From Gammaproteobacteria bacterium (lineage in GTDB: Bacteria; Pseudomonadota; Gammaproteobacteria; UBA4575), in NCBI GenBank assembly GCA_965222615.1, contig CBDCUI010000008.1:768001-832000 (forward strand): a stretch of 64,000 nucleotides of DNA, in the 5' to 3' direction. The notes below the pieces were generated by a model. The model was not told where the DNA came from and ran no database searches. It saw nothing but the letters and a program-made list of their open reading frames with translations. Positions 44,372-63,585 of the stretch are shown here, in pieces. How positions within the stretch are numbered: position 1 is the stretch's first letter; every line of letters starts with the position of its first letter. Both the position numbers and the translations under genes were made by a program.

Positions 44372-44375
44372 AGCG

Positions 44376-44819: not shown

Positions 44820-44825
44820 AGAATC

Positions 44826-45824: not shown

Positions 45825-47119
45825 TGAAGAATATTATTAAACTATTAAGCGCTATGATTCTTGTTGTTGTGGGGCAAGCTGCGCATGCGATTTTAGAAAT
45901 TGAAATAACACAGGGCATTGAAGGGGCCATTCCAATCGCTGTAGTCGCATTTGCAGGGGATGTCTACACTTCACCTGAAGCAGTTGAAACAATTGTACGA
46001 AATGATTTAGGTAGTAGTGGGTTTTTTAATGTATTAAATAAGAGTAATTTCCCGCAAGTAGTTACTGATCCGACACAAATCAATTTTAATGCATGGCGAA
46101 ATACTGGGGTAGAGAATTTAATACTGGGTAAAGTTACTAAAGCGGGTGGAGATCAATACCGTATCGAGTTTCAGCTCATTGATCTAATAAGAAAGAAAAG
46201 GCTATTAGGCAATGTTATTCCTGCAACGAGTAAAGATGTACGCAAAGTCGGTCATAAGATTAGTGATGTCGTATTTGAAAAATTGACCGGTATACGTGGA
46301 GCGTTTAGTACGCGTGTTGCTTATGTCAGTACTATCAATAAGAATTCTGAGAACCCTAAATACATTTTGCAAATAGCGGATGCCGATGGGCACAACGCTA
46401 GAACGGTATTTTCATCAAATAAGCAGTTGTTATCTCCATCTTGGTCACCTGATGGAACAAAATTAGTCTATGTTTCTTTTGAGACGGGCAATTCTGCAAT
46501 TTATATTCAAGATATTATTCAAGGCACGCGCGCAAAGGTGTCGGCGCGTTCAGGTATAAATAGTGCTCCTGCATGGTCGCCAAATGGTAAATATTTGGCA
46601 TTTACACTCTCCGCGAGAGGTAGTCCCGATATTTATGTCATGGATATGAGTTCAAAAAATATCAGGCGTTTAACCAGTGCATCTTCGATCGATACGGAAC
46701 CTTGTTGGACACCAGATAGTAAATCATTATTATTTACCTCAGATCGTAGTGGAGGGCCGCAAATTTATGCAGTTGCCGTAAATGGTGGTAAGCCTAGCCG
46801 GCTTACTTTTGAAGGCAACTATAACGCTGCACCAGATATCTCTCCTGACGGTCGTTACATGACATTGGTGCATAATGGTGGGAATGGTTTTAGGATTGCG
46901 GTAATGGATCTGCAAAATAAAGCCATGCGGGTAATTACCAATGGAAGTTTGGATGAAGGGCCGAGTTATGCGCCCAATGGGAGTATGATTATTTATGCCA
47001 CTGCTGAACAAGGTCGTGGCGTCTTAGCGGCGGTGAGTGCAGATGGTAGAGTAAAACAAAGATTACGGTTGACGGAAGGTGATGTGCGGGAACCTGCGTG
47101 GTCGCCTTTTCGTTACTAA
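45824..47119 (+). CDS. tolB: TolB
   Basis: PD40 repeats (SPSWSPDG, APAWSPNG), EPAWSP end. Confidence 0.96.
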   Translation: MKNIIKLLSAMILVVVGQAAHAILEIEITQGIEGAIPIAVVAFAGDVYTSPEAVETIVRNDLGSSGFFNVLNKSNFPQVVTDPTQINFNAWRNTGVENLILGKVTKAGGDQYRIEFQLIDLIRKKRLLGNVIPATSKDVRKVGHKISDVVFEKLTGIRGAFSTRVAYVSTINKNSENPKYILQIADADGHNARTVFSSNKQLLSPSWSPDGTKLVYVSFETGNSAIYIQDIIQGTRAKVSARSGINSAPAWSPNGKYLAFTLSARGSPDIYVMDMSSKNIRRLTSASSIDTEPCWTPDSKSLLFTSDRSGGPQIYAVAVNGGKPSRLTFEGNYNAAPDISPDGRYMTLVHNGGNGFRIAVMDLQNKAMRVITNGSLDEGPSYAPNGSMIIYATAEQGRGVLAAVSADGRVKQRLRLTEGDVREPAWSPFRY

Positions 47120-47150
47120 TGTGTATGACTAAATAGAGGAGAATGAAGTC

Positions 47151-47669
47151 ATGATTAAACAACTTATATGTATGTTATTGATAAGCTTTTTTGTCATTGG
47201 TGCTTGTAGCACCAAGACGAAAGAAATGCCAGGCGATGTCATCAGTGCAGATTATGAAGGTGATGTTGGCGATGGATCTGAAACAACAGGCCTTGATGGT
47301 GAAGGTGATTTAGCAATGGATGGACTTGGTGACGGCAGCCTTACATCCGGTAACGTGATTTATTTCGACTATAATAGTGCCGAAATTCGAGATGATTCAT
47401 TGCCTTTAATTGCATCGGCAGCTGAAACCTTGGCATCTAATCCTGCAATGCAAATGCGTTTAGAAGGACATGCAGATGAGCGAGGCACACGTGAGTATAA
47501 TCTTGCCTTAGGCGAACAACGTGCCAAATCTGTACGTGAATTGATTATGCTGCAAGGTGCTAGTGGCAATCAAATAGATATCGTCAGCTATGGCGAAGAA
47601 AAACCTGCGGTAATTGGATCTGGTGAGGAATCCTGGCAACAAAATAGAAGAGTGGAATTGATTTACTAA
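47151..47669 (+). CDS. pal: Peptidoglycan-associated lipoprotein
   Basis: Lipobox IGAC; GHADERGTREYNLALG, SYGEEKP, NRRVE. Confidence 0.96.
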   Translation: MIKQLICMLLISFFVIGACSTKTKEMPGDVISADYEGDVGDGSETTGLDGEGDLAMDGLGDGSLTSGNVIYFDYNSAEIRDDSLPLIASAAETLASNPAMQMRLEGHADERGTREYNLALGEQRAKSVRELIMLQGASGNQIDIVSYGEEKPAVIGSGEESWQQNRRVELIY

Positions 47670-47707
47670 AAAAGCAGGCCATTAATATTGTTGGAGAAAA
47701 TTTCAGG

Positions 47708-48574
47708 ATGAAAATAATCAAAATGCTTATGGCATTTGCATTGGTAGTGTTGTCGACTACCGTAACTGCGCACAAAGCGACAGAAGCGAGAGTGGATGCG
47801 TTGGATGCAAGGACGCAACGCATTGAGCGCGTTGTAGATAATCAGGCATTGCTTGGAATGGCAAAAAAAATTGAAGCATTGCAACGCGAATTGCAAGAAC
47901 TTCGCGGCGAAAATGAGCGACTTACCTATGAGTTAAATACTCTCAAGGAGCGCCAACGTGAACAATATTTGGATTTAGATCGACGACTACAATCTTCAAC
48001 AGGTGCGGCGAGTATTGGGGCTGCTCCTGCACAAAGTCAAGTTATAGATGGGCAAATTGTAGATAGAAACATCGTAACGAATTCTACTGTCTCGCAAACA
48101 ACTGAGGCACCAAAAATATCTACAACTGATCCTTCATCAACCCAAATCGCCACCACATCTAGTGCAACTACATCAGCAGGTGTGTCTAGTGATGCTGCTC
48201 AAGACTATAAAAGTGCCTTTACTTTGTTAAAGCAAGGTAAATACGATGATTCAATCGTATCTTTTGAGGCATTTCTACAAAACCATCCAACTAGTAAATA
48301 TGCTTCTAATGCGCAGTATTGGCTCGCAGAAGCAAATTATGTTTCCAAGCGTTACCCTAAGGCATTAACTGAATTTTCAAAAGTGATCAACGAATATCCT
48401 GCTAGCTCTAAAGTTGCGGATGCAAGGTTAAAGCTAGGTTTTACCTATTATGAATTGGGTAAGTATGAAGAAGCCAAAATTGAGCTGACAAAACTGCGTG
48501 CGCAATTTCCAAACTCAAGTGTAGCAAGTCTTGCGCAACAACGCCTCGAGCGCATGTCAAGAGAAGGTAAGTAA
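47708..48574 (+). CDS. cpoB: Cell division coordinator CpoB (YbgF)
   Basis: Signal peptide, coiled coil, TPR with NAQYWLAE; after pal. Confidence 0.93.
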   Translation: MKIIKMLMAFALVVLSTTVTAHKATEARVDALDARTQRIERVVDNQALLGMAKKIEALQRELQELRGENERLTYELNTLKERQREQYLDLDRRLQSSTGAASIGAAPAQSQVIDGQIVDRNIVTNSTVSQTTEAPKISTTDPSSTQIATTSSATTSAGVSSDAAQDYKSAFTLLKQGKYDDSIVSFEAFLQNHPTSKYASNAQYWLAEANYVSKRYPKALTEFSKVINEYPASSKVADARLKLGFTYYELGKYEEAKIELTKLRAQFPNSSVASLAQQRLERMSREGK

Positions 48575-48591
48575 ACTCAAAGGCTTTAAAC

Positions 48592-49272
48592 ATGAACGCG
48601 ACCGTTACATGTTTGAGTGTGACACCTCAGTTACAACGACTTCGTATCACTGAAATATTTGCCTCAATCCAGGGCGAGTCTACTACTGTCGGGATTCCTA
48701 CTATATTTATTCGATTAACTGGTTGTCCTTTACGTTGTAATTACTGTGATACATCTTATGCATTTACAGGCGGCGAATGGATGGATCTAACTAGTATTGA
48801 GGAAAGAGTGGCAAGCTTGCATTTAAAACATGTTACAGTGACTGGTGGTGAGCCGCTCGCGCAAAAGTCATGCTTGACTTTGCTGACAAGTCTCTGTGAT
48901 AAAAATTACTTGGTTTCGCTTGAAACTAGTGGCGCACTAGATATTAGTAAAGTTGATCCGCGTGTTGTAAAAATAGTAGACATTAAAACTCCTGCATCTG
49001 GAGAAGTTAGTAGGAATTACTGGGAAAACATAAATTATCTTCGTGAGCAAGATCAAATCAAGTTTGTGATAGGTAATCAGTCAGATTATGTATGGGCAAA
49101 AGAAATTATTTCAGAGCATCGTTTAACACAGCGTTGTGAAGTTTTATTTTCGCCTAGTCATGAAGAACTTGAATCAAAACAGCTCGCTGAGTGGATTTTA
49201 GAAGACAAGCTTAATGTACGTTTACAACTACAACTTCACAAGATTCTTTGGGGCAATGAGCCCGGTCGTTAA
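48592..49272 (+). CDS. queE: 7-carboxy-7-deazaguanine synthase
   Basis: EIFASIQGE, CPLRCNYCDT, TGGEP, QLHK. Confidence 0.95.
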   Translation: MNATVTCLSVTPQLQRLRITEIFASIQGESTTVGIPTIFIRLTGCPLRCNYCDTSYAFTGGEWMDLTSIEERVASLHLKHVTVTGGEPLAQKSCLTLLTSLCDKNYLVSLETSGALDISKVDPRVVKIVDIKTPASGEVSRNYWENINYLREQDQIKFVIGNQSDYVWAKEIISEHRLTQRCEVLFSPSHEELESKQLAEWILEDKLNVRLQLQLHKILWGNEPGR

Positions 49273-49292
49273 CATTCTTTAGGTCAGGTTGA

Positions 49293-49970
49293 TTGCCGCA
49301 ACAAACCAAAGCCATTGTTCTACTTTCAGGTGGACTTGATTCAGCGACTACACTAGCTTTTGCTCGATCTCAGGGTTATTCCTGTTATGCATTGAGCTTT
49401 CAATATGGTCAACGCCATAATGTTGAATTAATCGCCGCAAAAAAAATTGCGCAAGCATGTCAGGTAATAGAACACAAAATTTTTAATATTGATCTTTCTA
49501 CTTTTAAAGGTTCAGCACTTACGGATGAAACCATTAACGTTCCAACTGATTCGACTCAAGAAATTCCGGTTACCTATGTGCCGGCACGCAATACGGTGTT
49601 TCTTTCAATTGCACTAGCTTGGGCCGAAGTACTAAGTGTTCAAGATATATTTATAGGTGTGAATGCGGTGGATTATTCAGGCTATCCCGACTGTCGCCCT
49701 GAATACATAAACGCTTTTCAAAACATGGCTAATTTGGCGACTAAAGCTGCTATTGAAGGGCAAACACTGCATATTCACACCCCTCTAATATCGATGTCAA
49801 AAGCAGAGATAATTAAAACTGGTGTTGATCTGGGCGTAGATTATTCAGATACCATATCTTGTTATAGCGCAGATGAGCAAGGTCGTGCTTGCGGGATTTG
49901 TGATTCGTGCCGTTTTCGTAAACAAGGGTTTTTGGACGCAGGAGTTTCTGATCCAACATTATATATATGA
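49293..49970 (+). CDS. queC: 7-cyano-7-deazaguanine synthase
   Basis: LSGGLDS, TYVPARN, YPDCRPE, CGICDSC. Confidence 0.96.
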
Positions 49971-51064: not shown

Positions 51065-52285
51065 CTATCTGTTATTCATCCAGGATGGTAGCTTGAAATT
51101 GCCAACATTGTATGGTTCAGGGGCAATTAATATCTGTTCATATTTATCTCCTTGGATTTGAAAAAACAAATGTGGCATTCCCAAAGATGGATCGTTAGTA
51201 GCATCTGGGAAAGGGATAGCTGCTTGCCATTTAGAGTGATAGTTAATAATTCCTGCTACGCTTCTGTATATTGTTTCTTTTAGTTTTTCTGCCACCTGTT
51301 TATTTTGTTCAATATCTCCAGGGTGCCCAGTGCCGCCAGCAAGTGTTGCTGCAATTGCGTAATGATGCATTGCACCATATGGTAAGCAACCCACACTGGG
51401 AGTTGAATTTTCACCGAATCGAGCATAGTACCTTTTTGCAAATGCGCGACCTATTTCATCCTGTAATAACCCGATTACCGTACCAACAATAATACCTCTA
51501 GCAGCTTCACCAGCAACTTCTGTAAAAGCTTGATGCATGGCTCCATACTGTAAATAGATAAGACTATTAGTAGGGTTTTCTAAAAATTGTTTTTGAAAAT
51601 GTGCAAGATCAACAGAATAGAAATGAGTGTTTGCTATTGCAGACGGGTTTATTTTGTTTAATTTTTTAAGCACATCACGCCATTCAGTGGTCGGTGTTTG
51701 AACAATCTCAGGGCCAAAAGCTATTTCCCATCCAAAGTTCTTTGCTACCGATTTCATCGCATTTGCAATAACGATGCTATAGGGTTTTGATCCAGAAATA
51801 ATCGCAAGTTTGTTATTGGATGGCTTCCATTTATCTGAATCACGTAACCAAGAAATAAATTTGATAAAACCTTGGCCGTACCAATATTCAGCTGGATCAC
51901 CCATGAAGCAACCGAAGTAGCGTTCAGGGTCACCCGTTACAGTGTCATGATGTTGTAATAATGTATTATGATTTATGTAGATGATGCCAGCATCGGCAAT
52001 AATGTCATATTCTGCATTTTGTGGACCAATATTATAACCATTAATTATGGCATGCACGTGGCTTTCATTAATTAACGATTGTGCAGCTGCAATTACTTCA
52101 CCAGCGGTTTGGGTTCGAGTATCGGCAGAAATCAGTTCAATCATCTGCCCGCAGATCCCTCCTTTTGAGTTGATTTCTTCAACAGCTAATAATGCTCCGT
52201 TGAGTGATTCAATTCCGTCTGCTGCTGAAGGGCCCGTGAGTGGTACCATCGAACCAATAGGAATTGTTTCGCTAGTGTTTTTCAC
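51065..52285 (-). CDS. Leu/Ile/Val-type (AmiC-like) binding-protein fold without signal peptide; probable cytoplasmic sensor
   Basis: IGSMVPLTGPSAADG, LAVEEINSKGGICG begin at residue ~10; GTGA overlap with kinase stop. Confidence 0.8.
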   Translation of the reverse strand: MKNTSETIPIGSMVPLTGPSAADGIESLNGALLAVEEINSKGGICGQMIELISADTRTQTAGEVIAAAQSLINESHVHAIINGYNIGPQNAEYDIIADAGIIYINHNTLLQHHDTVTGDPERYFGCFMGDPAEYWYGQGFIKFISWLRDSDKWKPSNNKLAIISGSKPYSIVIANAMKSVAKNFGWEIAFGPEIVQTPTTEWRDVLKKLNKINPSAIANTHFYSVDLAHFQKQFLENPTNSLIYLQYGAMHQAFTEVAGEAARGIIVGTVIGLLQDEIGRAFAKRYYARFGENSTPSVGCLPYGAMHHYAIAATLAGGTGHPGDIEQNKQVAEKLKETIYRSVAGIINYHSKWQAAIPFPDATNDPSLGMPHLFFQIQGDKYEQILIAPEPYNVGNFKLPSWMNNR

Positions 52286-54222
52286 GCATTTGTTTCCTGC
52301 AAGGATTTTGGCTCAAATAATAAATTGTGCATCATCAGTCTTAGCTGCGGGGGGTTCAATGGTTTGATCAAAATTGGAAAATTTAGTGACTTGATATACT
52401 CAATTATTTTCGGATCAGTGTCTGCAGTCATAACGATGCACGGAAGGCTGGAATCAAGTTTTTTTCTTATTGAGTTTGCAACTTGAGTGCCTGTAGTACC
52501 CGCGTGTAATCTGTAGTCAACAAGCAATAAATCAGGTGTCCAATCTTCAGTATCTAGAATTGATAAAACATTTTCCTCACTTTCAGCTAAACGTATGTTT
52601 ACACCCCATCTATTAAAGAGTTCAGCTAGTGAGTCGCGAAGAATCTCATCATCTTCAACAATTAAAACTTTTGTTTTGGAAAATTCTCCACCAATGGCTT
52701 CACTAATTTCAGGTTCTCCAACTTCACTTTTCCAAACATCACCTAAAGGTAAATCAATTGCAAATACAGATCCTTTCCCTAAAGAAGATTTAAGATGAAT
52801 GCAATGGTCAAGTAGCTTAGCTATACGTTGAGCAATATTAAGGCCAAGTCCTAATCCTTGTTTTTGCTTTTTTATTTTTTTGGGTACTTGATAAAATTCA
52901 TCAAAAATTGTGTCTAAATGCTCTTCAGGAATGCCACAACCTGTATCATGAATTTCAAGTCTAATTTTGTTACTTTTTCTGCGACAGCCAATCAATATCT
53001 TTCCAATATCTGTATAGCGGATTGCATTGGCAACAAAGTTGCTAATTATACGTTCAAGTAATGCACTATCACTGACGATTGTGACTTTGGTTGGAACGAC
53101 ATGAAAGTATAAACCTTTTTCTGTAGCTTGATGCTTGAACTGAATTTCGATACGTTCTAAAAGTGATGCCAGTTGAAAATTAGTAACGCGAGGGGTAATT
53201 TTACCTGCGTCAAGATGACCTACTTGAAGTAAAACGTTTAGAATATCTTCCATAATACTTGCTGAAATATCCATTGCATGTAATAAATCCTGACGGTGTT
53301 TTTCATCTTCTTCGTTTATGCACGAGTAGATAAGAATTTTCAGAGTAGCTAATGGTTGTCGCAGATCATGATTTGCGGCACGTAAAAAGCGTGATTTATT
53401 GGTACTCGCGCTTTCTGCGAGTTCTTTTGCTTGTCGTAAAGCTTTTTCACCTCGTCTCTGCGCGGACAAATCATTTATAATAGTAATAGTTCCTGAGGTT
53501 TCTATGTGCTGCTCAATCATTTCAATACTGCGACCATCTGGGAAAAATATTTCTGCTGAGCCCCCATTAATATGTATATGTTTGCGTTCTTCACTCCATT
53601 TGTCACGATCTGTTCCAGAGTATATCTCATTAGTACTTGCAGCGAGATCAATGAAAGCAGAATAGGAAAGACCTTTTTCAAGGCAAGATGAAATAGGATA
53701 AAAAAATTCTTCAAATTTCGAGTTGTAAGTTAATAGCAAATCTTTACTATCCCAAATCGCAATCCCAAAATTGGAATATTCGAAGGCTTGTAAAATCAAG
53801 CTTTGGTCTGTAACCGGTGCTTTTGTATTGCGTAAGCTTGTAATATTTTGAGTTGAACCAATTATTTCCTGGATATCACCACGAGAATCAGGAATCGGAG
53901 TAGCTGTATCACGCACCCAGCAAGTTGACTCATCTGATAAAATAATTCGGTAATCAATTGTCGAGTTATTTCCTGATATTAAATTATTCCAATGTGTTTC
54001 AAATTTTGTGATGTCGAGTTCAGATATTTTAGGAGCATTATTGTTAGATTTTAGATAGAGTATGAGTGGAGGCAATGATAAATTTTGTAATGATCCTGTT
54101 TGCCAAATAACATTGGGTTTCCCTAATTTATCAATGCAAACTGAATAAGAGATGCATTCGATAAGACTTGCAGCAACCGAAAATCTATCAACTGTTGGTG
54201 AAGTAGAAGGATCAAGCAACAT
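52282..54222 (-). CDS. Soluble hybrid sensor histidine kinase (PAS-PAS-HisKA-HATPase-REC)
   Basis: NHDLRQPL, NFVANAIRYT, DTGCGI, GLGLGL, receiver VEDD..LVDY..KP; no TM segment evident. Confidence 0.92.
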   Translation of the reverse strand: MLLDPSTSPTVDRFSVAASLIECISYSVCIDKLGKPNVIWQTGSLQNLSLPPLILYLKSNNNAPKISELDITKFETHWNNLISGNNSTIDYRIILSDESTCWVRDTATPIPDSRGDIQEIIGSTQNITSLRNTKAPVTDQSLILQAFEYSNFGIAIWDSKDLLLTYNSKFEEFFYPISSCLEKGLSYSAFIDLAASTNEIYSGTDRDKWSEERKHIHINGGSAEIFFPDGRSIEMIEQHIETSGTITIINDLSAQRRGEKALRQAKELAESASTNKSRFLRAANHDLRQPLATLKILIYSCINEEDEKHRQDLLHAMDISASIMEDILNVLLQVGHLDAGKITPRVTNFQLASLLERIEIQFKHQATEKGLYFHVVPTKVTIVSDSALLERIISNFVANAIRYTDIGKILIGCRRKSNKIRLEIHDTGCGIPEEHLDTIFDEFYQVPKKIKKQKQGLGLGLNIAQRIAKLLDHCIHLKSSLGKGSVFAIDLPLGDVWKSEVGEPEISEAIGGEFSKTKVLIVEDDEILRDSLAELFNRWGVNIRLAESEENVLSILDTEDWTPDLLLVDYRLHAGTTGTQVANSIRKKLDSSLPCIVMTADTDPKIIEYIKSLNFPILIKPLNPPQLRLMMHNLLFEPKSLQETNA

Positions 54223-54237
54223 TTAATTTGGAAATTA

Positions 54238-54915
54238 TTATTCAGGAAGGCTGACTGCAAAATGTATCGCTTGTGCTCGATCTGATAAGCCTAATTTTTT
54301 CATTGAGCTTCGCATATGTACACGTACAGTACTCGGGCTAATTTCTAATGATTTGGCTATCTTAGAATCTGATAAGCCTTGACCTAATAGTTTGAAGACT
54401 TGGCGTTCACGAGCCGTGAGCTTTTCAATATTCAATGATTTTGAATTTAATAAAAGTTGCTTTGATTTCGATTTGATCAACTTATCTTTGTCTTCCTGTA
54501 ATTCTGTCTTTGATTCAGTTTGTATTAATATTTGACGTGGGAAGGACACATCACCTGCAAGTACACGAGAAAGAGATTCAACCATATCTGCGCCTTGAGC
54601 AGATTTAGGAATATAGCCAACTACACCATGTTTTATCGACTGAAGTACATAGTCTCTATCCTCATGAACTGAAATGACAACTATAGGAATGTTCGGGAAA
54701 AGCTGTCGTAATTTAATCAAACCAGCAAATTCATCAAAGCCAGGCATGATCAAATCAATGACCATTAAAGATATGTCAGGATTGTTATCTAGTATAGTTA
54801 CAGCGTCATCAAAGGCTGCAGCTTCATAAGGTTCGAATTTTTCATCAATTCTAAGCAGAACGTGCTTAATTGATTCTCTGACAATCCAATGGTCATCTGC
54901 TATGAGGATTTTCAT
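54238..54915 (-). CDS. NarL/LuxR-family response regulator
   Basis: ILIADDH, IDLIMPG, GYIPK, LTARERQV...TVRVH HTH. Confidence 0.94.
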   Translation of the reverse strand: MKILIADDHWIVRESIKHVLLRIDEKFEPYEAAAFDDAVTILDNNPDISLMVIDLIMPGFDEFAGLIKLRQLFPNIPIVVISVHEDRDYVLQSIKHGVVGYIPKSAQGADMVESLSRVLAGDVSFPRQILIQTESKTELQEDKDKLIKSKSKQLLLNSKSLNIEKLTARERQVFKLLGQGLSDSKIAKSLEISPSTVRVHMRSSMKKLGLSDRAQAIHFAVSLPE

Positions 54916-55458: not shown

Positions 55459-56826
55459 ATGACTGATAAGAAAAAAAATGGCTTTGATGAAAATAAAGAA
55501 ATGAATAAAAACCAAAATACAAGACGTAATATTTTAAAAGGAGCAGCAGCTGTAGCAGCAGTATCTTCTCTTCCAGCACCCTGGGTAAGGCGAGTTAATG
55601 CATCTGATAAAATCCTTTTAGGGGTTCCTTCGTCATTATCTACACCATACGGTGTTGCAGATGACCAAGATCACCTCAATGGGACTATTCTTGCACAGGA
55701 AGAAATTAATGCTGCAGGAGGGATCCAAGGTAGAGAATTAGAGCTATTTGTACCTGATGTAGATAAATTAAACCCTGAGAGTTGTAGACAGACAATCGCG
55801 GCATGTATTGATAAGAAAGTACATGCGATATCTAATGCATTTTTATTTGCACCCATACCTGCTATGGACGAATCTGCGAAATATAAGTGCCCATACTTAC
55901 AAGGAAATACACAGCGTAATGCTACGGATGCATTCAAAGCTGAGCCAGAAAAATACAGTCATATTTTCCAAACGGATCCCTCTGAAGTTAATTATGGATG
56001 GACATACCCACTCTGGTTGACTCATATGGAAAAAGAGCAGGGATGGAAGCCAAAAAACCGAAGGATTCATATTGTTGCGGAACAAGTTGGCTATAATCAA
56101 ACTATCTTAGCCGCTGCAAAAGAATCTATTCCAAAATATGATTTTGAATTAGCTGAAGTAACGGATATTCAATATCCAGTGAATGATTGGGCGCCAGTCA
56201 TACAAAGACTAAAAGAAGTAGATGCTGGTGCAATTATGATTGATCACTGGGTGGCTTCTGAATATGCCGCATTTTGTAAACAATTTGTGGCAGATCCTGT
56301 GAAAGATTCGATTGTGTATCTTCAATACGGCCCTTCACAGCCTGAGTTTTTAGAACTTGGTGGCCGTGCTACAGAAGGATTTTGTTGGAGTACAGTTCTT
56401 GGAATTTATGGTGACAAACTAGGCCAAGACTTTAGAGCAAAGTATTTAAAACGTTTTCCTGAGTTTGGTGATACAAAACGCAATACCATGGGCCTTGTGT
56501 ATACGGGCAATGGTTACGACATTGTCAAGTATCTCGAAAAAGCTTGGAATGCTACAAAAGCGCTCGATACAACTCCGGAAGATTTCAAGAAAGTTTGTGA
56601 TTGGGTAAGAGCAAATCCTGATCGTGGTGTATGCGGCATGATGGACATGAACAATGAATATCAAGAAGCGCTGCACTATCCAGATAACGGATTTAATCTG
56701 CAAGCAGATTCCCACGAAACCGGTATGAGTCAACTGTATGTGCAAGTGCAAGATGTTCAGCATAAGATCATTTGGCCGGATGCAATCGCTGAGACTAAAT
56801 TACAACCTTCACCATGGTGGGGTTAA
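55459..56826 (+). CDS. Tat-exported ABC substrate-binding protein (Liv/HAAT type)
   Basis: TRRNILKGAAAVAA twin-arginine signal; LAQEEINAAGGIQGRELE. Confidence 0.88.
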   Translation: MTDKKKNGFDENKEMNKNQNTRRNILKGAAAVAAVSSLPAPWVRRVNASDKILLGVPSSLSTPYGVADDQDHLNGTILAQEEINAAGGIQGRELELFVPDVDKLNPESCRQTIAACIDKKVHAISNAFLFAPIPAMDESAKYKCPYLQGNTQRNATDAFKAEPEKYSHIFQTDPSEVNYGWTYPLWLTHMEKEQGWKPKNRRIHIVAEQVGYNQTILAAAKESIPKYDFELAEVTDIQYPVNDWAPVIQRLKEVDAGAIMIDHWVASEYAAFCKQFVADPVKDSIVYLQYGPSQPEFLELGGRATEGFCWSTVLGIYGDKLGQDFRAKYLKRFPEFGDTKRNTMGLVYTGNGYDIVKYLEKAWNATKALDTTPEDFKKVCDWVRANPDRGVCGMMDMNNEYQEALHYPDNGFNLQADSHETGMSQLYVQVQDVQHKIIWPDAIAETKLQPSPWWG

Positions 56827-56853
56827 TCTAAAGCAACGCTGGGGGTAGACATC

Positions 56854-57585
56854 ATGGATGATCATTCATCTGCCCCACTATTTTCATGTGAAAATTTGTC
56901 ACTCGATTTAGGTGGCAGAGAAATTCTACGTGATATTGATTTGGAAATATGTCCAGGTGAAGTACTGGGTATTATTGGGCCCAATGGTGCCGGGAAAACT
57001 AGTTTACTTGAAATTCTTTCAGGCCGTTACACGCCTAAAACTGGAAATGTTTTTTTCAAAGGAAAAAACATCACAAATTTACATTTGTATCAACGTGCAA
57101 GAATTGGAATTGGTAGAACATATCAAACTCCTGTTGTACCGGAAGACTTAACTGTTGGTGAGACTTTTAAAGCTGCACGACAAGCTTACAAACCTTATTT
57201 AACACGTTTTGATGCAGAGTATGCCGCTGATCTGGTCGACTTTGTTGTTGATCATGACGTTTTAAACACTCAGCTTAAAACCTTTAACCGGCGCAAATTA
57301 TTACTCGCCAATATTCTAATGAAAAAACCTGAGTTGCTATTGATGGATGAACCCGCTGCGGGCCTGATAAATTCCGAAATAGATGAGATTGACGAAATAC
57401 TTAGAATGTTATCTAAAGAAATGAATATCGCAGTAATGATTGTAGAACATAGGATTGAATTGCTGGATACGATTGCAGATAGAGTGATTGTAATGGATGC
57501 AGGTGAAATCATTGCAAGAGGTTATCTCAACGAAATAATAAATAGTCCTGCAGTTCGCGCTGCGTATTTTGAAACGGTTACTTAA
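56854..57585 (+). CDS. ABC ATPase (LivG-like)
   Basis: GPNGAGKTS, GRTYQ, LMDEPAAG, VEH; degenerate signature motif. Confidence 0.9.
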   Translation: MDDHSSAPLFSCENLSLDLGGREILRDIDLEICPGEVLGIIGPNGAGKTSLLEILSGRYTPKTGNVFFKGKNITNLHLYQRARIGIGRTYQTPVVPEDLTVGETFKAARQAYKPYLTRFDAEYAADLVDFVVDHDVLNTQLKTFNRRKLLLANILMKKPELLLMDEPAAGLINSEIDEIDEILRMLSKEMNIAVMIVEHRIELLDTIADRVIVMDAGEIIARGYLNEIINSPAVRAAYFETVT

Positions 57586-57599
57586 TAACTTAATCATCT

Positions 57600-58307
57600 A
57601 TGAGTGAAATTTTAAATGTAAAAGGACTTTCTGCTGGATATGGACCCTTACGGGTAATTCATGATTTAGATTTAATCGTTAACTCAGGTGAGTGCATTGG
57701 ATTGGTTGGATTAAATGGCCATGGGAAAACAACATTATTTTATGCCGTTGCAGGTTTAACAGGATGGCAGCGTGGCTCAATTATATTTAATGGCAAACAA
57801 ATTGGGCGTACACGTAGTCAAGGGCCAGGTCGCTATACACATCTAATTGTTAGACAGGGCCTTGCCATTATGCCGCAAGGTGACGAGATATTTCACGGCT
57901 TAACTGTTGAAGAGCATCTCGATAGTGGTGCATTTACTAAAGAGGCATGGAAGACACGCAAGCAAAGGAAAGAGCAAGTACTAGATTTGTTTGAGCCTTT
58001 AAAAAATTTACTGAAAACTCCAGTAGCACGTTTATCGGGTGGGGAGCGAAGGATGGTTTCTATCGGGCGTGGACTGATGACAGATGCAAAACTTTATCTT
58101 GCCGATGAACCATCTTTGGGTTTAGCGCCGAAAATTGGAATCGGTGTAATGGAAGCATTATTAAAAATTGAATTAAGTGGATCTGCAATGATTATTGCGG
58201 AACAAAATGTAGCCCTATTAGAAGGAAAAGTCGATCGTGTAATCGGGATGCACGCAGGTAAATTAAAAGGTGAAGCCTCTTCCGCTTTATCAATGCATTT
58301 AAATTGA
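57600..58307 (+). CDS. ABC ATPase (LivF-like)
   Basis: GLNGHGKTT, LSGGERRM, DEPSLGLAP, EQN. Confidence 0.9.
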   Translation: MSEILNVKGLSAGYGPLRVIHDLDLIVNSGECIGLVGLNGHGKTTLFYAVAGLTGWQRGSIIFNGKQIGRTRSQGPGRYTHLIVRQGLAIMPQGDEIFHGLTVEEHLDSGAFTKEAWKTRKQRKEQVLDLFEPLKNLLKTPVARLSGGERRMVSIGRGLMTDAKLYLADEPSLGLAPKIGIGVMEALLKIELSGSAMIIAEQNVALLEGKVDRVIGMHAGKLKGEASSALSMHLN

Positions 58308-58316
58308 AAAGGACTG

Positions 58317-59201
58317 TTGTTGGATATTGACTTTATTATTATTAATGCAGTTGTAGTGGCATGTATCTACGGCCTTGTTGCAGTAGCTGTATCGATAACT
58401 TGGTCAAGTTTAGGATTATTAAATCTGGGTTACGGTTTTATATTTTCCTTTGCTGGATACGGTGCATACCTCATGTCGCGTATGATATGGGATCATCCAG
58501 TAGCGGTGCTAATTGCTGGTGTGCTGGTAGGTGCGCTAGGTGGAATTCTAATTTGTGCATTAGTCTTTATTCCACTGCACGATAAACCAAACTTTACGAT
58601 CAGAGGCATGGTAGGGACACTTGCGATTAGCTTAATTGGGTCGCAGTGTTTGCTTTGGTATTTTGGCCCTAAAAACAAAGCACTTCCTGAAATATTTGGT
58701 TATTGGAAAGTCTCTATTGGAGGTACAGTTTTAACGTCTGACAAAATTGGAATTGTCGTCTGTTCTATTTTAATGCTGATTTTTGTAGTGCGTTGGATGA
58801 AATCAAGTCGGCGTGGTCTAGAAATTAGAGCCATGATGATGAATCCACATGCTGCATCTATTGTTGGAATTGGGATAAGAAGAACAGGTTTTTATGTCAT
58901 GGCTATCACTGGTGCCATGGCAGGACTTTCCTCGGTATTACTTTCACAAACTTATTACATAGCACCTTTCAGTGGTCTTACCCCATTAATCAAAGGAGTG
59001 AGCATTGCCTTGATGGGGGGTTTAGGCAGTGTACAAGGCGCAGTAATTGCGGCAATTATTTTAGGTATTACAGAAGCTTTTACTTCAAGATTACTAGGAG
59101 GTCAGTATGTATTGATTACTCAGTTTTTAGTAATCATCACGGTTTTAATTATTAGGCCTAGAGGAATCGCCGGTATATTAGATAAAGCACGTGAACAATG
59201 A
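58317..59201 (+). CDS. ABC permease (LivH-like)
   Basis: Multi-TM; GLEIRA, GGLGSVQGA, RPRGI. Confidence 0.9.
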   Translation: MLDIDFIIINAVVVACIYGLVAVAVSITWSSLGLLNLGYGFIFSFAGYGAYLMSRMIWDHPVAVLIAGVLVGALGGILICALVFIPLHDKPNFTIRGMVGTLAISLIGSQCLLWYFGPKNKALPEIFGYWKVSIGGTVLTSDKIGIVVCSILMLIFVVRWMKSSRRGLEIRAMMMNPHAASIVGIGIRRTGFYVMAITGAMAGLSSVLLSQTYYIAPFSGLTPLIKGVSIALMGGLGSVQGAVIAAIILGITEAFTSRLLGGQYVLITQFLVIITVLIIRPRGIAGILDKAREQ

Positions 59202-60853
59202 GCACCGCACCCGATAAACAATATACGTGGAAAAATCCGTTAGCGATTTGGGGCGCAAAGGGCGGTAATTATGAAGTCCCAACGATTCGTGTAACGGATC
59301 CAAAATCAATTTGGGAACAAAATACAGAGTATAAAGTTCCTCTATATAAAGTTGGTAGATTTAAATATATCCACAAATGGAAAAATCATGGTGGCCGTTT
59401 ATGGGAAAGATTACGGTGGTGGCCAACACGCAGAACCTTGCTACTGATTCGTGGTTACTACAATAAAAAATCTCTTAAAGCACAAAAATTAATTGTAGAT
59501 AAAAGGCCTATCTATTGGGCAATTTGTTTATTAGCTTTAGCAGTTGCCCCATTTTTTCTACCTGAAGGAGTTCAGAACACTTTATTAACTGCAGGGGCTA
59601 TTTTTGGAATATATGCTGCAATTAATATATGTTGGACTCTTGTTATTGGGACAGCCAGTATTTTCTCACTTGCTACCTATGCGATAGTGGGAGTAGCGGC
59701 ATTTTGTACTTCGTGGCTCTCGATTAAGTTAGGTTATCCTTGGTGGTCGTTGCCTTTAATTGGTATGGCGATTGGGTTTATTTTTGGCGGAATTATTGCA
59801 CTTCCTGCAATGCGTTTGGATGGGTTTTATTATGCACTACTAACCTTGGGCCTAAATGAGCTTTGTAGAGTATATGTAGTCACGTCTAAAGAATTTGGGT
59901 CTGCATCGGGAGGATTGTACGGCGCCTCATCTTATATTAATTCTGATTGGTCACCTCTTACACAATCTTTAGTTTCTTATTACGGTGCTTTTGCGTTGCT
60001 TATTGCGTCACTATTCCTGTTTAGGTTTATAGATGGAAAACGAATTGGAAGATTATTAAAAATGGCGCCTGAGAAAAGAGAAGCGTTTGCAGAGGCAACC
60101 GGAGTGAATTATAAGAATGCAAGAATAACTGTATTCTTAATTTCTTCAGTCGCTTTAGGATTTATTGGTGGTTTTTATACCGCGCACTATCGCGGTGTGG
60201 CATTTTCAATTTTCAGTTTTGACACCGTATTGCTGGGCCTGGCAATGCTTACTATTGGAGGCATTGGTAGAGCTGAAGGTGCAGTAGCAGGAACTTTGAT
60301 TGTCGTATTTTTAGATAAAGTTTTGATCACACTAGGTCCAATACGTCACATTATGATTGGGTTATTGATGTTATTTGTTGTTTTATTTTTGAACAGAGGC
60401 TTGTTCGGCATGAAAAAACAATTTCGTGCCTGGAGAGATAAAAAGAAAGGCGAATGGCGATCCAGTCGCACTGAAAAAGGTGGTGAAGCATTACCTGAAG
60501 AAGCTACTGAAATTCATGACAAAGATGTTTTATACCATCGGCGTTTTGACAAAATGCAACGAGATTATCTGAAGACACTAGTTTGTGATGAAGTGATTGA
60601 AGAACACAAAAATAAACCATTGGGACAACACAGTGAAGCACTTGAAAGACTATTGTTGTATTTTCGTCGTGTTCCACAAATTGATAAGTATGCAATTAAA
60701 CGAGATGAATACTCGAATACTTTTAAAATTGTTGCTTTTTCTGGTCATAGAGGCACATCACCACGATTAGTTGAAGATAAAGAGTATAAAACAGTAGAAG
60801 AAGCTTATCATGGAGTATTTTTAAGACGTGTTTATGATTTGCTTGAATCATAA
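59198..60853 (+). CDS. ABC permease (LivM-like) with C-terminal DMFase small-subunit-like domain
   Basis: RLDGFYYALLTL, GGIGRAEGA core; last 111 aa align without gaps to 60875-61234. Confidence 0.9.
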   Translation: MSTAPDKQYTWKNPLAIWGAKGGNYEVPTIRVTDPKSIWEQNTEYKVPLYKVGRFKYIHKWKNHGGRLWERLRWWPTRRTLLLIRGYYNKKSLKAQKLIVDKRPIYWAICLLALAVAPFFLPEGVQNTLLTAGAIFGIYAAINICWTLVIGTASIFSLATYAIVGVAAFCTSWLSIKLGYPWWSLPLIGMAIGFIFGGIIALPAMRLDGFYYALLTLGLNELCRVYVVTSKEFGSASGGLYGASSYINSDWSPLTQSLVSYYGAFALLIASLFLFRFIDGKRIGRLLKMAPEKREAFAEATGVNYKNARITVFLISSVALGFIGGFYTAHYRGVAFSIFSFDTVLLGLAMLTIGGIGRAEGAVAGTLIVVFLDKVLITLGPIRHIMIGLLMLFVVLFLNRGLFGMKKQFRAWRDKKKGEWRSSRTEKGGEALPEEATEIHDKDVLYHRRFDKMQRDYLKTLVCDEVIEEHKNKPLGQHSEALERLLLYFRRVPQIDKYAIKRDEYSNTFKIVAFSGHRGTSPRLVEDKEYKTVEEAYHGVFLRRVYDLLES

Positions 60854-60874
60854 GAGTAATTTTGTATTTAGAAA

Positions 60875-61234
60875 ATGGACACTAAAAACAAAATAGAAAA
60901 TAAAGATCTAATATATCGCCAGTACTATGACAAGATGCAAGGTGATTATTTGAAGACGCTTATTTGTGATGAAATTATTGAAGAGTATAAAAATAACCCC
61001 TTGGGCCAACACAGTGAGCCACTTTCTAGATTATTACATTTTTTTAGTAGTGCTCCACAAAAAGATAAATATGCACTCAAGTATGATGAACACAATCACA
61101 CATATAAAATAATTGCATTGTCAGGTAAAAGAGGTGAGACTCCGCAATATGTTGAAGATAAAGAATATAAAAAGTTAGAAGATGCATATCACGGAGTATT
61201 CTTAAGACGTATTAATGACTTAATGAATTCATAA
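60875..61234 (+). CDS. N,N-dimethylformamidase small subunit (DmfA1-like)
   Basis: EIIEEYKNNPLG..L.RLLHFF and EDAYHGVFLRRINDL resemble recalled Paracoccus DmfA1 segments; directly upstream of the large subunit. Confidence 0.8.
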   Translation: MDTKNKIENKDLIYRQYYDKMQGDYLKTLICDEIIEEYKNNPLGQHSEPLSRLLHFFSSAPQKDKYALKYDEHNHTYKIIALSGKRGETPQYVEDKEYKKLEDAYHGVFLRRINDLMNS

Positions 61235-61263
61235 TTACTGCTTAAAAACTTTGGAATAATGAA

Positions 61264-63585
61264 ATGGCAGAAGTAAAAATATTTGGATATACAAATAAAA
61301 TTTCAGTTAAACAAGGTGAAAGTATTAATTTTCACGTAAGTGCAGATGGTATTAATACAGCAAGTGCACAGCTTGTGCGGCTCATTCATGGTGATCAGCA
61401 TCCAGATGGGCCTGGATTTGTAGAAAAGGAAATCGATTGTCTATTAAATGGAGAATGGGAAGTTAAAAAGCAGTTTACTCAATTAGGATCTTATTTGGTT
61501 GTTGATGATGTCAGTCAAAAGTTAAATATAGACGGGAGTTTTACATTGTTCTGCTATATCTGGCCTAGCATTCCAAAAAAGGGTTTACGTCAAACTCTAT
61601 TAGGTAAATGGGATGCAAGAACTAATGAAGGTTATGGAATTGGAATTAGTCCTGAAGGGCATCTCGAATTTTGGGTGGGTGACGGCAAAGAAATAGATTA
61701 TCTAGCTTCTGAATTACCACTAGTAGATAAAGTTTGGTATTTCGTTGGTGCAAGTTTTGATCATCACACTAAAGTTGCAACATTATATCAAGAAGGAGTT
61801 TTAAATAGATATAACTCATTAATTGGGAAAGTCGCACCATATGACTTTCGCTCGCACATGCAAACCACTTTTAGGTTTAAGCAAAAAAACCGAGAGGATG
61901 TACCTTTTATGATAGCCGGTGCTCTGGATTTTCATGAGTTAAGAGGCAATTTTGTTAATGACACTTATTTTGGGAAGATCGATTGCCCGGGAATTTGTAA
62001 CCGCTCTTTATCGCGAAAAGAAATGGATGACATCTGTTCTGGAGAGCTCCCTCCGCAAGGTTCCATTTTAGCTTATTGGGATACCGCAGAAGGATATACA
62101 GAAAACGGAATTGGAAATACTGTTGTTGATATTGGTCCACATGGATTAAATGCCAATGGTGTAAATCATCCTATACGTTGCTTAACCGGGTGGAATTGGT
62201 CAGGGAAAAATGATTGCTTCAGGCTAGCACCAGAAGAATATGGAGGAATTGAATTTCATCCAGAATCAATAACAGATTGTAATTGGGAAGTTACCAAATC
62301 TATGCAAATTCCGGCAGATTTAAAAAGTGGCGTTTATGCAATGCGTTTGACTGCGGGTACTGGCGTAGGTTTAGCAGAAGAGCATGTAGTATTTTTTGTG
62401 CGTCCCTCACAGCCTACATGCAAGCTTTGTTTTCTTGTTCCTACAGCAAGTTATTTAGCCTATGCAAATGAAAAGTTAAGTTTTGATGCACAAATTATTC
62501 AGCCCATGACTGGACAGCCTCCCGTAATTACAGATGTTGATATAGAGATTTACAAGCATCGCGAATTTGGCTTGTCAACTTATGATAGTTACGAAGACGG
62601 TGCAGGTGTTTCATTTAGCTCTTATAAAAGGCCAATTGTAAACATGCGACCGAAATATCGTATATCAAGTATGAATATACCCTGGCAGCTTCCTGCTGAT
62701 CTTTCTATTATTGGTTGGTTAGAAGCGTGTAATTATGAATATGATGTTATAACTGATGAAGACTTACATCGTGAAGGTTTAAGTGCTATTCAACCTTATA
62801 ACTGTCTTATTACCGGCACTCACCCTGAATATGTATCTGAAAAAATGCTCGATGCACAAGAAGACTTCGTCGCACAAGGAGGCAGGCTTATTTACACAGG
62901 CGGTAATGGCTATTACTGGTGTGTAGGTTTTTATGATGATGAACCGTGGTGTATGGAAGTTCGCAAATTAGATTCTGGAATGCGTGCGTGGGCTGCTAAA
63001 GCAGGCGAACACTATCTACAAACTACAGGTGAGAAAAGTGGCTTATGGAGAAATCGAGGACGTGCACCACAAAAGTTAACCGGTGTTGGATTTATAGCTG
63101 AAGGATTTGAAACTTGTGCACCTTTTCGCAAAATGCCTGATAGCTATCATCGCACAGTATCTTGGATTTCAGAAGGAATAGAGGGAGAAATAATTGGTAA
63201 TGAAGGTTTAGCTTATGGTGGTGCTGCTGGGATTGAACTTGATCGCTATGATCTTTCATTGGGCACACCCCCTCACACTAAAATCATTGCGTCATCTGGT
63301 GGTCATAGTGATAACTATGTGCTAGTAACCGAAGAGCTTCTTTATGCCTACGCCGGATTGATAGGTAGTTTGGATTATCGAATACGTGCGGACATGACTT
63401 ACTTTACTGCACCAAATAATGGTGCAGTGTTTAGCACTGGTTCTATAGCATTTGGTTCAGCTTTACCCGTAAATAATTACAACAATAATGCTTCAACATT
63501 ATTTAAAACTATTGTAGATAATTTTATTAAAGATGGGAAACTCCCAGGAGCTAGTTGGACACTTGAGGAGAAACAGTGGAGATAA
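61264..63585 (+). CDS. N,N-dimethylformamidase large subunit family (DmfA2-like)
   Basis: LVRLIHGD-HPDGPG, LamG-like domain, SYLAYANE, GLSTYD, TGTHPEY, ELDRYDLSLGTPP, RADMTYF. Confidence 0.92.
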   Translation: MAEVKIFGYTNKISVKQGESINFHVSADGINTASAQLVRLIHGDQHPDGPGFVEKEIDCLLNGEWEVKKQFTQLGSYLVVDDVSQKLNIDGSFTLFCYIWPSIPKKGLRQTLLGKWDARTNEGYGIGISPEGHLEFWVGDGKEIDYLASELPLVDKVWYFVGASFDHHTKVATLYQEGVLNRYNSLIGKVAPYDFRSHMQTTFRFKQKNREDVPFMIAGALDFHELRGNFVNDTYFGKIDCPGICNRSLSRKEMDDICSGELPPQGSILAYWDTAEGYTENGIGNTVVDIGPHGLNANGVNHPIRCLTGWNWSGKNDCFRLAPEEYGGIEFHPESITDCNWEVTKSMQIPADLKSGVYAMRLTAGTGVGLAEEHVVFFVRPSQPTCKLCFLVPTASYLAYANEKLSFDAQIIQPMTGQPPVITDVDIEIYKHREFGLSTYDSYEDGAGVSFSSYKRPIVNMRPKYRISSMNIPWQLPADLSIIGWLEACNYEYDVITDEDLHREGLSAIQPYNCLITGTHPEYVSEKMLDAQEDFVAQGGRLIYTGGNGYYWCVGFYDDEPWCMEVRKLDSGMRAWAAKAGEHYLQTTGEKSGLWRNRGRAPQKLTGVGFIAEGFETCAPFRKMPDSYHRTVSWISEGIEGEIIGNEGLAYGGAAGIELDRYDLSLGTPPHTKIIASSGGHSDNYVLVTEELLYAYAGLIGSLDYRIRADMTYFTAPNNGAVFSTGSIAFGSALPVNNYNNNASTLFKTIVDNFIKDGKLPGASWTLEEKQWR

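Follow-up and report, generated by a model that had tools for sequence, protein, structure and literature searches.

The locus described here raises the question of whether a bacterial importer can carry, as part of one of its own membrane subunits, a piece of the enzyme that consumes the imported substrate. It lies within a stretch of 64,000 nucleotides (nt) from a gammaproteobacterium of the UBA4575 lineage (assembly GCA_965222615.1, contig CBDCUI010000008.1, positions 768,001 to 832,000), here called the window, and coordinates given without a further label count from its first letter. At 55459-63585 on the forward strand the window holds seven tightly packed genes, encoding a binding protein, two ATPases and two permeases of an ATP-binding cassette (ABC) importer together with proteins of 119 and 773 amino acids (aa). 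The latter two resemble the small and large subunits of the N,N-dimethylformamide (DMF)-hydrolysing DMFase of Paracoccus sp., a two-subunit iron amidase of solved structure (PDB 6LVB; Arya et al. 2020, PMC7686228), and the second permease carries, fused to its C-terminus, another copy of that same small subunit. We found this fusion to be genuine, widespread and strongly constrained, and in many related loci to be the only small-subunit copy present. Sequence comparisons and structure models lead us to propose, at a probability of about 0.7, that the amidase docks on its own importer, with the enzyme tethered at the transporter's inner face.

The reading frame of the fused permease (59198-60853, forward strand, 551 aa) is open from end to end, and its ATG overlaps the stop codon of the upstream permease gene (58317-59201) as ATGA. 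Four parts can be distinguished along it, as follows.

59198-59509, forward strand: N-terminal extension, residues 1-104, basic and Trp-rich (21 Lys and Arg against 6 Asp and Glu in residues 1-97), predicted to be cytoplasmic
59510-60406, forward strand: LivM/UrtC-like membrane core, residues 105-403, of the BPD_transp_2 family, with about ten transmembrane (TM) helices in the AlphaFold2 (AF2) model
60407-60520, forward strand: linker, residues 404-441, in which a basic helix (405-426) that is conserved precedes a segment (427-441) modelled with low confidence
60521-60853, forward strand: DMFase small-subunit domain (DMF_alpha), residues 442-551 and the stop codon, matching chain B of 6LVB in sequence and fold

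The fused permease scored 75.5 bits with the BPD_transp_2 model over residues 136-395 (cut-off 26.8) and stayed far under the cut-offs of the NCBIfam equivalog models for LivM (61 vs 366), UrtC (44.6 vs 296.2) and archaeal UrtC (37.1 vs 575.55), so that it is neither a Liv nor an Urt orthologue. In the AF2 model about ten membrane helices fall within residues 105-397, the last of them ending at approximately 397-403, and this membrane part has a weak fold likeness to ten-TM importers of the BtuC type (TM-score 0.46-0.50), while the N-terminal extension was modelled with low to moderate confidence.

A reading of the window made from its letters alone (the sequence-only reading) had counted by hand 71 identities over 111 gapless positions between the fused domain, taken from residue 441, and the free small subunit next door. 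BLASTP bore this out, aligning fused residues 438-551 with residues 6-119 of the free copy without gaps, with 72 of 114 positions identical (63%) and 94 of 114 positive (E 6e-55). Fused residues 430-548 also match residues 6-127 of the 6LVB_B chain (E 2.9e-9), and the domain was modelled with confidence as four helices (442-461, 464-472, 480-491 and 533-550) and two strands (496-503 and 508-515). Foldseek returned 6lvb_B as the best PDB match of the fused model, with a target-normalised TM-score of 0.80 and a root-mean-square deviation of 2.5 Å over 119 columns, and the structure paper (PMC7686228) likewise describes the Paracoccus small subunit as having four helices, of which the first and the last are long, together with two strands. 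Both copies in the window thus match chain B in sequence, the fused one also in fold, although small-subunit identity is only about 28-31% (29-31% between the fused domain and the free small subunits of the studied DMF degraders). The domain corresponds to the Pfam family DMF_alpha (PF26354), and the neighbours of the free copy in the protein atlas are DMF_alpha clusters. Most of the small-subunit family representatives listed (150, out of 197 matches) are free proteins, and the description of a free-standing polypeptide of about 115-135 aa suits the 119-aa copy and not the fused one. The Paracoccus small subunit is a separate protein of 132 aa within a soluble alpha2beta2 enzyme, whereas here one copy forms the C-terminal domain of a permease.

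The stretch joining this domain to the membrane core, residues 404-441, is rich in Lys, Arg and Glu and has no stop, as the sequence-only reading had described it, but treating it as a passive tether did not hold. Fourteen of its positions are invariant in 73 sequences, among them G404, Q408, F409, W412, R413, E419, R421, R424, G428, G429, P433, E434 and T437, and the ratio of nonsynonymous to synonymous substitution rates (dN/dS) across it is 0.042. Residues 430-441 moreover already align to residues 6 onward of 6LVB_B, and the N-terminal part of the Paracoccus small subunit is reported to make contact with the large subunits (PMC7686228, accessible portion). The so-called linker is thereby among the most conserved parts of the fused protein. 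The N-terminal extension also has many invariant columns across the 73 sequences, and it occurs together with the C-terminal domain in 76 of 76 matches, all of which carry the Pfam pair PF26354 and PF02653.

When fused residues 425-551 were searched against 5.8 billion proteins, with candidates of 303-965 aa accepted at E <= 0.001, 581 protein clusters matched, and among the matches listed the PF26354 and PF02653 pair was precomputed on 119 of 120 clusters. Related loci were collected by scanning one genome per species, which gave 259 related stretches, and the best 80 of these 259 are the basis of all locus counts given here. Their record titles include Thiotrichales, Arenicellales, Ectothiorhodospiraceae, Pelagibacteraceae (SAR11), Roseovarius, Rhodospirillales, Bradyrhizobium, Methylopila, Hansschlegelia and Burkholderiales, among others. 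The fusion was found in 80 of 80 loci, whole in 79 and cut by the contig end in the remaining one (L028), and a large-subunit gene lies next to the small-subunit coding sequence in the window and in 79 of the 80, the contig of L028 ending inside the fused gene. Homologues are thus not always split, and the fused architecture that the sequence-only reading had proposed recurs beside the large subunit. The sole broken case of the 80 is on a Rhodospirillales chromosome from a metagenome-assembled genome (L049:7770-9515), where a frameshift splits the fused domain; this could be an assembly error or a pseudogene.

Apart from that single frameshift in another locus, nothing was found that speaks for regarding the fusion in the window as an artefact of assembly, sequencing or gene calling, or as a decaying pseudogene. 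The same open frame in 79 of the 80 independent loci, from many orders, and in the 581 clusters, together with dN/dS values of 0.04-0.06 across linker and domain, makes the chance of this negligible. Contigs from a second sample of the same study, covering 60200-60667 with the linker included, showed no differences there, and we consider the explanation ruled out, in agreement with the sequence-only reading. A run spanning the whole stretch may be the window's own source. One further fusion, of an Hsp70-like N-terminal fragment with the last 213 residues of a fused permease (P0098, 464 aa, on a metagenome contig of 2627 nt), was set aside as probably chimeric. In the window's own genome the domain occurs only twice, once fused and once free. 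Of 41 genomes from relatives, five (the window's own included) have the domain, and three of the others show the fused and then the free gene, so the operon is accessory and patchy among these relatives.

We found that the arrangement of small-subunit genes differs between the loci. Sorting was based on BLASTP annotation together with a profile (95 sequences) run on all stop-to-stop frames of at least 35 aa, with one locus (L058) moved by hand from the third layout to the first, and gave the following distribution.

Layout 1, fused gene, free small-subunit gene, large-subunit gene (that of the window): 41 of 80 loci
Layout 2, fused gene, large-subunit gene, no free copy: 32 of 80 loci
Layout 3, fused gene, large-subunit gene, free small-subunit gene, second large-subunit gene (Bradyrhizobium): 6 of 80 loci
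Cut by the contig end: 1 of 80 loci

What most strongly indicates that the fused domain serves as the enzyme's small subunit is the second of these layouts, considered together with the reported inactivity of the Paracoccus large subunit on its own (PMC7686228, accessible portion). In the 32 fused-only loci, no free small subunit was found within about 8 kb with the 95-sequence profile on all frames of at least 35 aa, so that a divergent small subunit concealed there was also rejected as an explanation. The large-subunit gene starts at most about 110 nt after the end of the fused gene (2-4 nt in SAR11), which leaves no room for a hidden gene, and the large subunits are of normal length (772-792 aa), which excludes a compensating fusion. 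A 39-row family profile was, in addition, run over ten whole fused-only genomes, and in five of these, one 5.3-Mb Burkholderiales chromosome and four SAR11 genomes, the fused copy was the only one found; the Burkholderiales chromosome gave one further match of 46 residues (E 0.059). Sequence comparison hence supports the suggestion of the sequence-only reading that the fused copy can stand in for the free small subunit. In the third layout (L077, L083-L085, L087 and L091), the gene order gives the impression that each large subunit has a partner of its own, the fused domain in one case and the free copy in the other. At another locus (L080), there are two large-subunit genes and a free small subunit is absent.

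Fused and free copies nonetheless coexist in the window, which could be taken to mean that the fused domain is a regulatory appendage that gates transport by binding the large subunit, the substrate or the product and is no part of the active enzyme; the catalytic partner would then be the free small subunit in those operons that have one. Regulatory (trans-inhibition) domains do occur on other ABC importers, although they are known there from the ATPase subunits rather than from the permease. Fused copies also add invariant residues on the first and last helices of the domain, which are variable in the free copies, and such extra surfaces would be consistent with additional contacts, other than those with the large subunit. 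In the 32 fused-only loci and in the five genomes where nothing else was detected, however, the fused domain is the only candidate partner. We therefore think it unlikely that regulation is the domain's role in place of catalysis, even though this explanation overlaps with docking, and docking and gating could coexist.

We next compared the constraint on the different parts of the operon. Mean pairwise identities come from window-type loci, of which 250 pairs were sampled and 61 could be used, and median dN/dS from 11 close gammaproteobacterial loci, for which only 8-18 of 36-55 pairs were usable, making the values rough.

N-terminal extension: median dN/dS 0.088
Permease membrane core: mean identity 0.74, median dN/dS 0.050
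Linker: median dN/dS 0.042
Fused domain: mean identity 0.74, median dN/dS 0.055
Free small subunit: mean identity 0.46, median dN/dS 0.141
Large subunit: mean identity 0.75, median dN/dS 0.052

The fused domain was more conserved than the free copy in 61 of 61 locus pairs, and with its linker it is constrained as strongly as the catalytic subunit (dN/dS about 0.05). The dN/dS of the fused domain, 0.055, is that of a sequence under purifying selection, which is what the view of a maintained domain had implied. Family core motifs are kept in both copies.

These values bear on another possibility, namely that the fusion is an expression device from which the domain is freed, by proteolysis of the linker or by an internal start, to work as an ordinary soluble subunit of an untethered enzyme. 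The marked invariance of the linker could be that of a processing site, its segment 427-441 is predicted to be flexible, Met453 is conserved in at least 90% of 13 sequences, and the solved enzyme is a soluble alpha2beta2 protein (PMC7686228). No known processing signal was identified in the linker, however, and translation from Met453 would leave out a large part of the long first helix (442-461), a region of high conservation in the fused copies. Simple co-expression would also leave the constraint on helix 405-426 and on the N-terminal extension unexplained (dN/dS 0.042 and 0.088), and translationally coupled adjacent genes, as found in many operons of the same family, would match expression without any fusion. 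We hence judge release of the domain to be improbable, about to the same degree as a purely regulatory role.

As for the history of the two copies, a FastTree phylogeny grouped the fused domains (Shimodaira-Hasegawa-like support 88) with the free copies apart, and the subtree of free copies mirrored that of the fused ones. This mirroring argues for an old duplication of which both copies were kept, as the sequence-only reading had supposed, and both are under purifying selection. In a tree built with a mixture model, the window-type free copies instead nest beside the window-type fused domains, in a clade (99/93) that includes SAR11 fused-only sequences, and by that nesting the free copy would be a later duplicate of the fused domain. 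An approximately unbiased test of a single fused clade gave a borderline p of 0.0425 for a group that was named after seeing the tree. The two trees thus disagree on the direction of the duplication.

The partner that the fused domain would bind has the features of an intact catalytic subunit. It resembles the DMFA2 large subunit (EC 3.5.1.56) over its full length and keeps the Fe ligands, as in the Paracoccus enzyme. The alignment to 6LVB_A shows conservation of the iron-site residues Y399, Y440 and E521 and of H519 and N547, of which the first three are the iron ligands (a 2-Tyr-1-Glu site) as described in the accessible portion of the structure paper (PMC7686228). In the numbering of the window's protein these are Y400, Y440, E522, H520 and N548, all invariant in 25 orthologues. 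When the large subunit (25-row alignment) was modelled together with permease residues 405-551 (73-row alignment), the interaction prediction score from aligned errors (ipSAE) was 0.84 (runs 0.83, 0.86 and 0.84), the best of three controls giving 0.00. Contacts agreed to at least 92% between runs, and the predicted local distance difference test (pLDDT) of the partner was at least 81. The mark used for this score is reached by 58 of 80 solved complexes and by 2 of 110 mismatched pairs, these counts being only rough with own alignments. A like complex, 6LVB, is already solved, and the score obtained for the pairing anticipated by the sequence-only reading shows that the fused domain still resembles a competent partner of the large subunit, not that it binds it.

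The domain is also predicted to lie on the side of the membrane where that partner would be. Lys and Arg residues are concentrated in the N-terminal extension, in the loop at 276-309 (nine Lys and Arg) and in the segment after the last TM helix, with six and then four helices between them. By the positive-inside rule, and with the helices of the AF2 model, the fused permease is predicted to have both termini inside and its domain in the cytoplasm, which was the location given in the sequence-only reading. Neither the large subunit nor the free small subunit has a signal peptide.

Several observations weigh against docking, and the first of them concern the models. The full-length AF2 model (73-row alignment) is of moderate confidence only, with a mean pLDDT of 74.6, and the high score of the complex may reflect the model's memory of the solved 6LVB structure, so that it attests likeness and not binding. 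Positions at the predicted interface and the other positions of the domain were conserved to the same extent, in both the fused copies (0.76 vs 0.75) and the free ones (0.60 vs 0.57). Furthermore, the entry for a related enzyme, N-acetyl-(R)-beta-phenylalanine acylase (8HUY), lists only large-subunit-like chains, and some members of the family may therefore work without a small subunit. If that were so here, the fused domain could have a structural role intrinsic to the transporter, such as pairing transporters or stabilising the ATPases, and the unfailing co-occurrence of N-terminal extension and domain (76 of 76) would fit the two packing together on it. Such a role seems to us very improbable, since the domain keeps the core motifs and the fold of free small subunits, is always encoded directly upstream of the large subunit (79 of 80, the contig of L028 ending) and is placed on the large subunit with high confidence by the complex model.

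Other reservations come from the genomes. The dN/dS comparisons rest on dS values of 1.3-1.7, close to saturation. The four SAR11 fused-only genomes are partial, at 0.7-1.2 Mb, and the other five of the ten fused-only genomes do hold further small-subunit-like genes, where cross-use is possible. Six of seven such extra matches (in four genomes, with the two of G049 left out) directly adjoin a distant large-subunit paralogue of their own, at 35-39% identity, and the seventh, in Methylopila (L092:8165-8572), is a lone full-length small-subunit gene without a large subunit beside it. The stoichiometry of fused-only organisms is also a difficulty, with one fused domain per transporter and an alpha2beta2 arrangement in the solved enzyme, and in the window itself the free copy could be the enzyme's working partner.

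Docking of the amidase on its importer remains the reading that we favour. The binding protein, predicted to be exported by twin-arginine translocation (TAT), would bind the amide in the periplasm, and the two permeases and two ATPases would import it at the expense of ATP. The C-terminal domain of the permease, reached via the basic helix and a short flexible segment, would bind the iron-dependent large subunit as the free small subunit of Paracoccus does, whereby active amidase would be assembled on the cytoplasmic face of the importer. The large subunit held in this way would hydrolyse the amide as it emerges, with an active-site entrance built from both subunits, as is the case in Paracoccus (PMC7686228, accessible portion). 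The products would be a charged amine and formate, so that the small permeant amide could not diffuse back out. The faster-evolving free copy of the window may fill the second small-subunit site of a large-subunit dimer or support a soluble pool of the enzyme, and in fused-only organisms either two transporters would be held per dimer or only one site of the dimer would be filled. A more far-reaching proposal, to which we give somewhat less than an even chance, is that a wide range of Proteobacteria, oceanic SAR11 among them, may have a formamide amidase that exists solely as a supercomplex with its importer. Small-subunit domain, linker and N-terminal extension would then form an obligatory docking platform, and uptake and hydrolysis would be one vectorial step, a form of group translocation driven by hydrolysis in which a small permeant amide is trapped as methylated amine and formate. 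The fused-only state would be ancestral, with the free copy of the window a later, fast-evolving duplicate of the fused domain.

The genes surrounding the fused permease, including a divergently transcribed regulatory module, are as follows.

51065-52285, reverse strand: AmiC-like binding protein, Peripla_BP_6 (PF13458, E 1.9e-31), N-terminus without a signal sequence
52282-54222, reverse strand: PAS hybrid histidine kinase (domains PAS_7, PAS_3, HisKA, HATPase_c, Response_reg), whose gene shares 4 nt with that of the AmiC-like protein
54238-54915, reverse strand: LuxR-family response regulator with Response_reg and GerE domains, divergent from the transporter operon
55459-56826, forward strand: periplasmic substrate-binding protein, Peripla_BP_6 (E 2e-21), with a TAT_signal match of 22.7 bits, exactly the cut-off
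56854-57585, forward strand: first ABC ATPase, ABC_tran (E 9.9e-24)
57600-58307, forward strand: second ABC ATPase, ABC_tran (E 1.2e-26)
58317-59201, forward strand: first permease, LivH/UrtB-like, BPD_transp_2 (E 2.1e-29), 96.8 bits with the UrtB model against a cut-off of 250.3
60875-61234, forward strand: free DMFase small subunit, 119 aa, matching 6LVB_B (E 6.5e-9)
61264-63585, forward strand: DMFase-type large catalytic subunit, 773 aa, DMFA2_C (E 3e-88), matching 6LVB_A (E 4.5e-175) over residues 1-762

The order of the genes for binding protein, two ATPases and two permeases is the same in those loci that reach far enough upstream. The binding protein had only weak matches to NCBIfam models for LivJ-like and urea-binding proteins, far under their cut-offs, and its TAT signal would imply export in a folded state, which is unusual among binding proteins of the Peripla_BP_6 type. 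Many of the 80 loci encode, upstream and on the strand opposite to the operon, a homologue of the AmiC-like protein that is 25-30% identical to the operon's own substrate-binding protein. The module at 51065-54915 is a candidate cytoplasmic amide-sensing two-component system, in which the AmiC-like protein would be the sensor, and in Paracoccus aminophilus a protein of the LuxR family, DmfR, is the activator of the dmf genes (PMC4543880). A DMFase, an inner-membrane translocator, a LuxR protein and a hybrid kinase are described in gene clusters of SAR11 and Pseudothioglobus in the available part of PMC10308929, which also mentions a rhodopsin/flotillin link to such a cluster; neither a rhodopsin nor a flotillin was among five open reading frames scanned in the first approximately 5.6 kb of a 15-kb downstream stretch of the window's own genome. 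That region does hold, 1.5-4.6 kb past the end of the window (L098:2462-5571), a LysR regulator and the large and small subunits of a form I RuBisCO, from which the organism is probably an autotroph also able to use small amides. Upstream, at 43673-49970, the window encodes housekeeping functions, with a Tol-Pal cluster (TolQ-like, TolA, TolB, a Pal-like OmpA and a CpoB-like protein), a radical S-adenosylmethionine protein and QueC.

With regard to the substrate, four amides are hydrolysed by the Paracoccus enzyme, namely DMF, formamide, N-methylformamide and N-ethylformamide, and of these N-methylformamide shows the lowest Km and the highest efficiency (PMC7686228, Table 1). Downstream context was informative solely in SAR11, the other sampled loci having unrelated or mobile-element genes there. 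In one SAR11 single-cell genome (L036:12059-16313), GATase_6, GXGXG, Glu_synthase and Gln-synt_C domains are encoded right after the large subunit, a set resembling that of the N-methylglutamate pathway of methylamine use. These downstream genes suggest that the product of the amidase is a methylated amine. We infer that the system is inducible and serves to import and hydrolyse a small N-substituted formamide, such as N-methylformamide or a DMF-like compound. In Pacific metaproteomes, DmfA has been detected from both Alpha- and Gammaproteobacteria (PMC9477243). Together with the occurrence of the operon in SAR11 and with its neighbours there, this suggests that a naturally occurring N-methylated formamide supplies carbon, nitrogen or energy in the ocean.

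The operon is also found on mobile elements. In Roseovarius sp. 217 (L034:13256-16601), an IS110-family transposase and the replication protein RepC are encoded just downstream of it, and large conjugative plasmids of Agrobacterium and Rhizobium, among them the pAt plasmid of Agrobacterium tumefaciens (L100, CP048549.1), bear the fused-only operon. The IS110 and RepC neighbours, the plasmid matches and the patchy distribution suggest horizontal transfer. The annotation of the pAt plasmid gives the fused gene as a branched-chain amino acid permease and has no more than 'LamG domain-containing protein' for the large subunit, which conceals the pathway. Plasmid 2 of the archaeon Halalkalicoccus jeotgali (L099:6779-7321) encodes a 180-aa small-subunit homologue beside a DMFase-type large subunit, labelled 'inner-membrane translocator'. 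No hydrophobic segment was evident in this protein by eye, and we rejected it as a membrane-anchored small subunit, the label being a probable carry-over from the fused bacterial permeases.

Compared with known importers, the system has the five components of LivHMGF and UrtABCDE, that is a binding protein, two ATPases and two BPD_transp_2 permeases, and its permeases belong to the same family, which also includes transporters of short-chain amides and urea (FmdDEF). Unlike those importers, it has an N-terminal extension of 104 aa and some 150 aa of C-terminal linker and enzyme-subunit domain added to one permease. Some of the genomes also encode paralogous DMFase-linked transporters, whose permeases measure about 380 aa and whose small subunits are free. 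In Methylopila, Hansschlegelia and Chelatococcus (L092-L094) their gene order is two permeases, two ATPases, a small-subunit-like gene and a large subunit 37-39% identical to that of the window. This small-subunit-like gene matches only the C-terminal half of the family profile, and the small-subunit searches found no such domain in the paralogous permeases (stop-to-stop frames of about 380 aa). The studied DMF degraders, P. aminophilus with pAMI2 and Methylobacterium sp. DM1, carry free dmfA1-type genes (PMC4543880, accessible portion), and unlike in Paracoccus the fused domain is the sole small-subunit copy in many relatives.

Conversion of a substrate at the exit of its transporter, with trapping of the product and a gradient kept favourable, is known from transport metabolons, group translocation by the phosphotransferase system and vectorial acylation of fatty acids. 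In contrast to these, the link would here be covalent, with the membrane domain of an ABC importer bearing the non-catalytic subunit of a heteromeric hydrolase, and we know of no described case of such coupling. No description of a fusion between a permease and a DMFase small subunit was found in the main texts of open-access papers and preprints. The accessible portion of the DMFase structure paper (PMC7686228) describes none, and the words transporter, permease and fusion are absent from the available part of a preprint on 952 DMFase-bearing genomes (10.1101/2021.03.18.435917). The novelty claimed in the sequence-only reading accordingly stood as far as these open-access texts go, but the pair of domains as such was already present in precomputed Pfam annotation (PF26354 with PF02653). 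A known importer family and a known enzyme are here joined in an undescribed way.

The system is not confined to sites polluted with solvents, as it occurs in SAR11 and in other marine and soil bacteria. Database annotation hides the pathway, since the name given to the fused gene is merely that of a branched-chain amino acid permease and some of the large subunits are named only by their LamG domain. If the enzyme does sit on the transporter, this would be a natural ABC importer physically coupled, through a covalent non-catalytic subunit, to the hydrolase that consumes its substrate. It would then provide a simple and testable model of how small uncharged molecules able to leak across membranes can be trapped and channelled.

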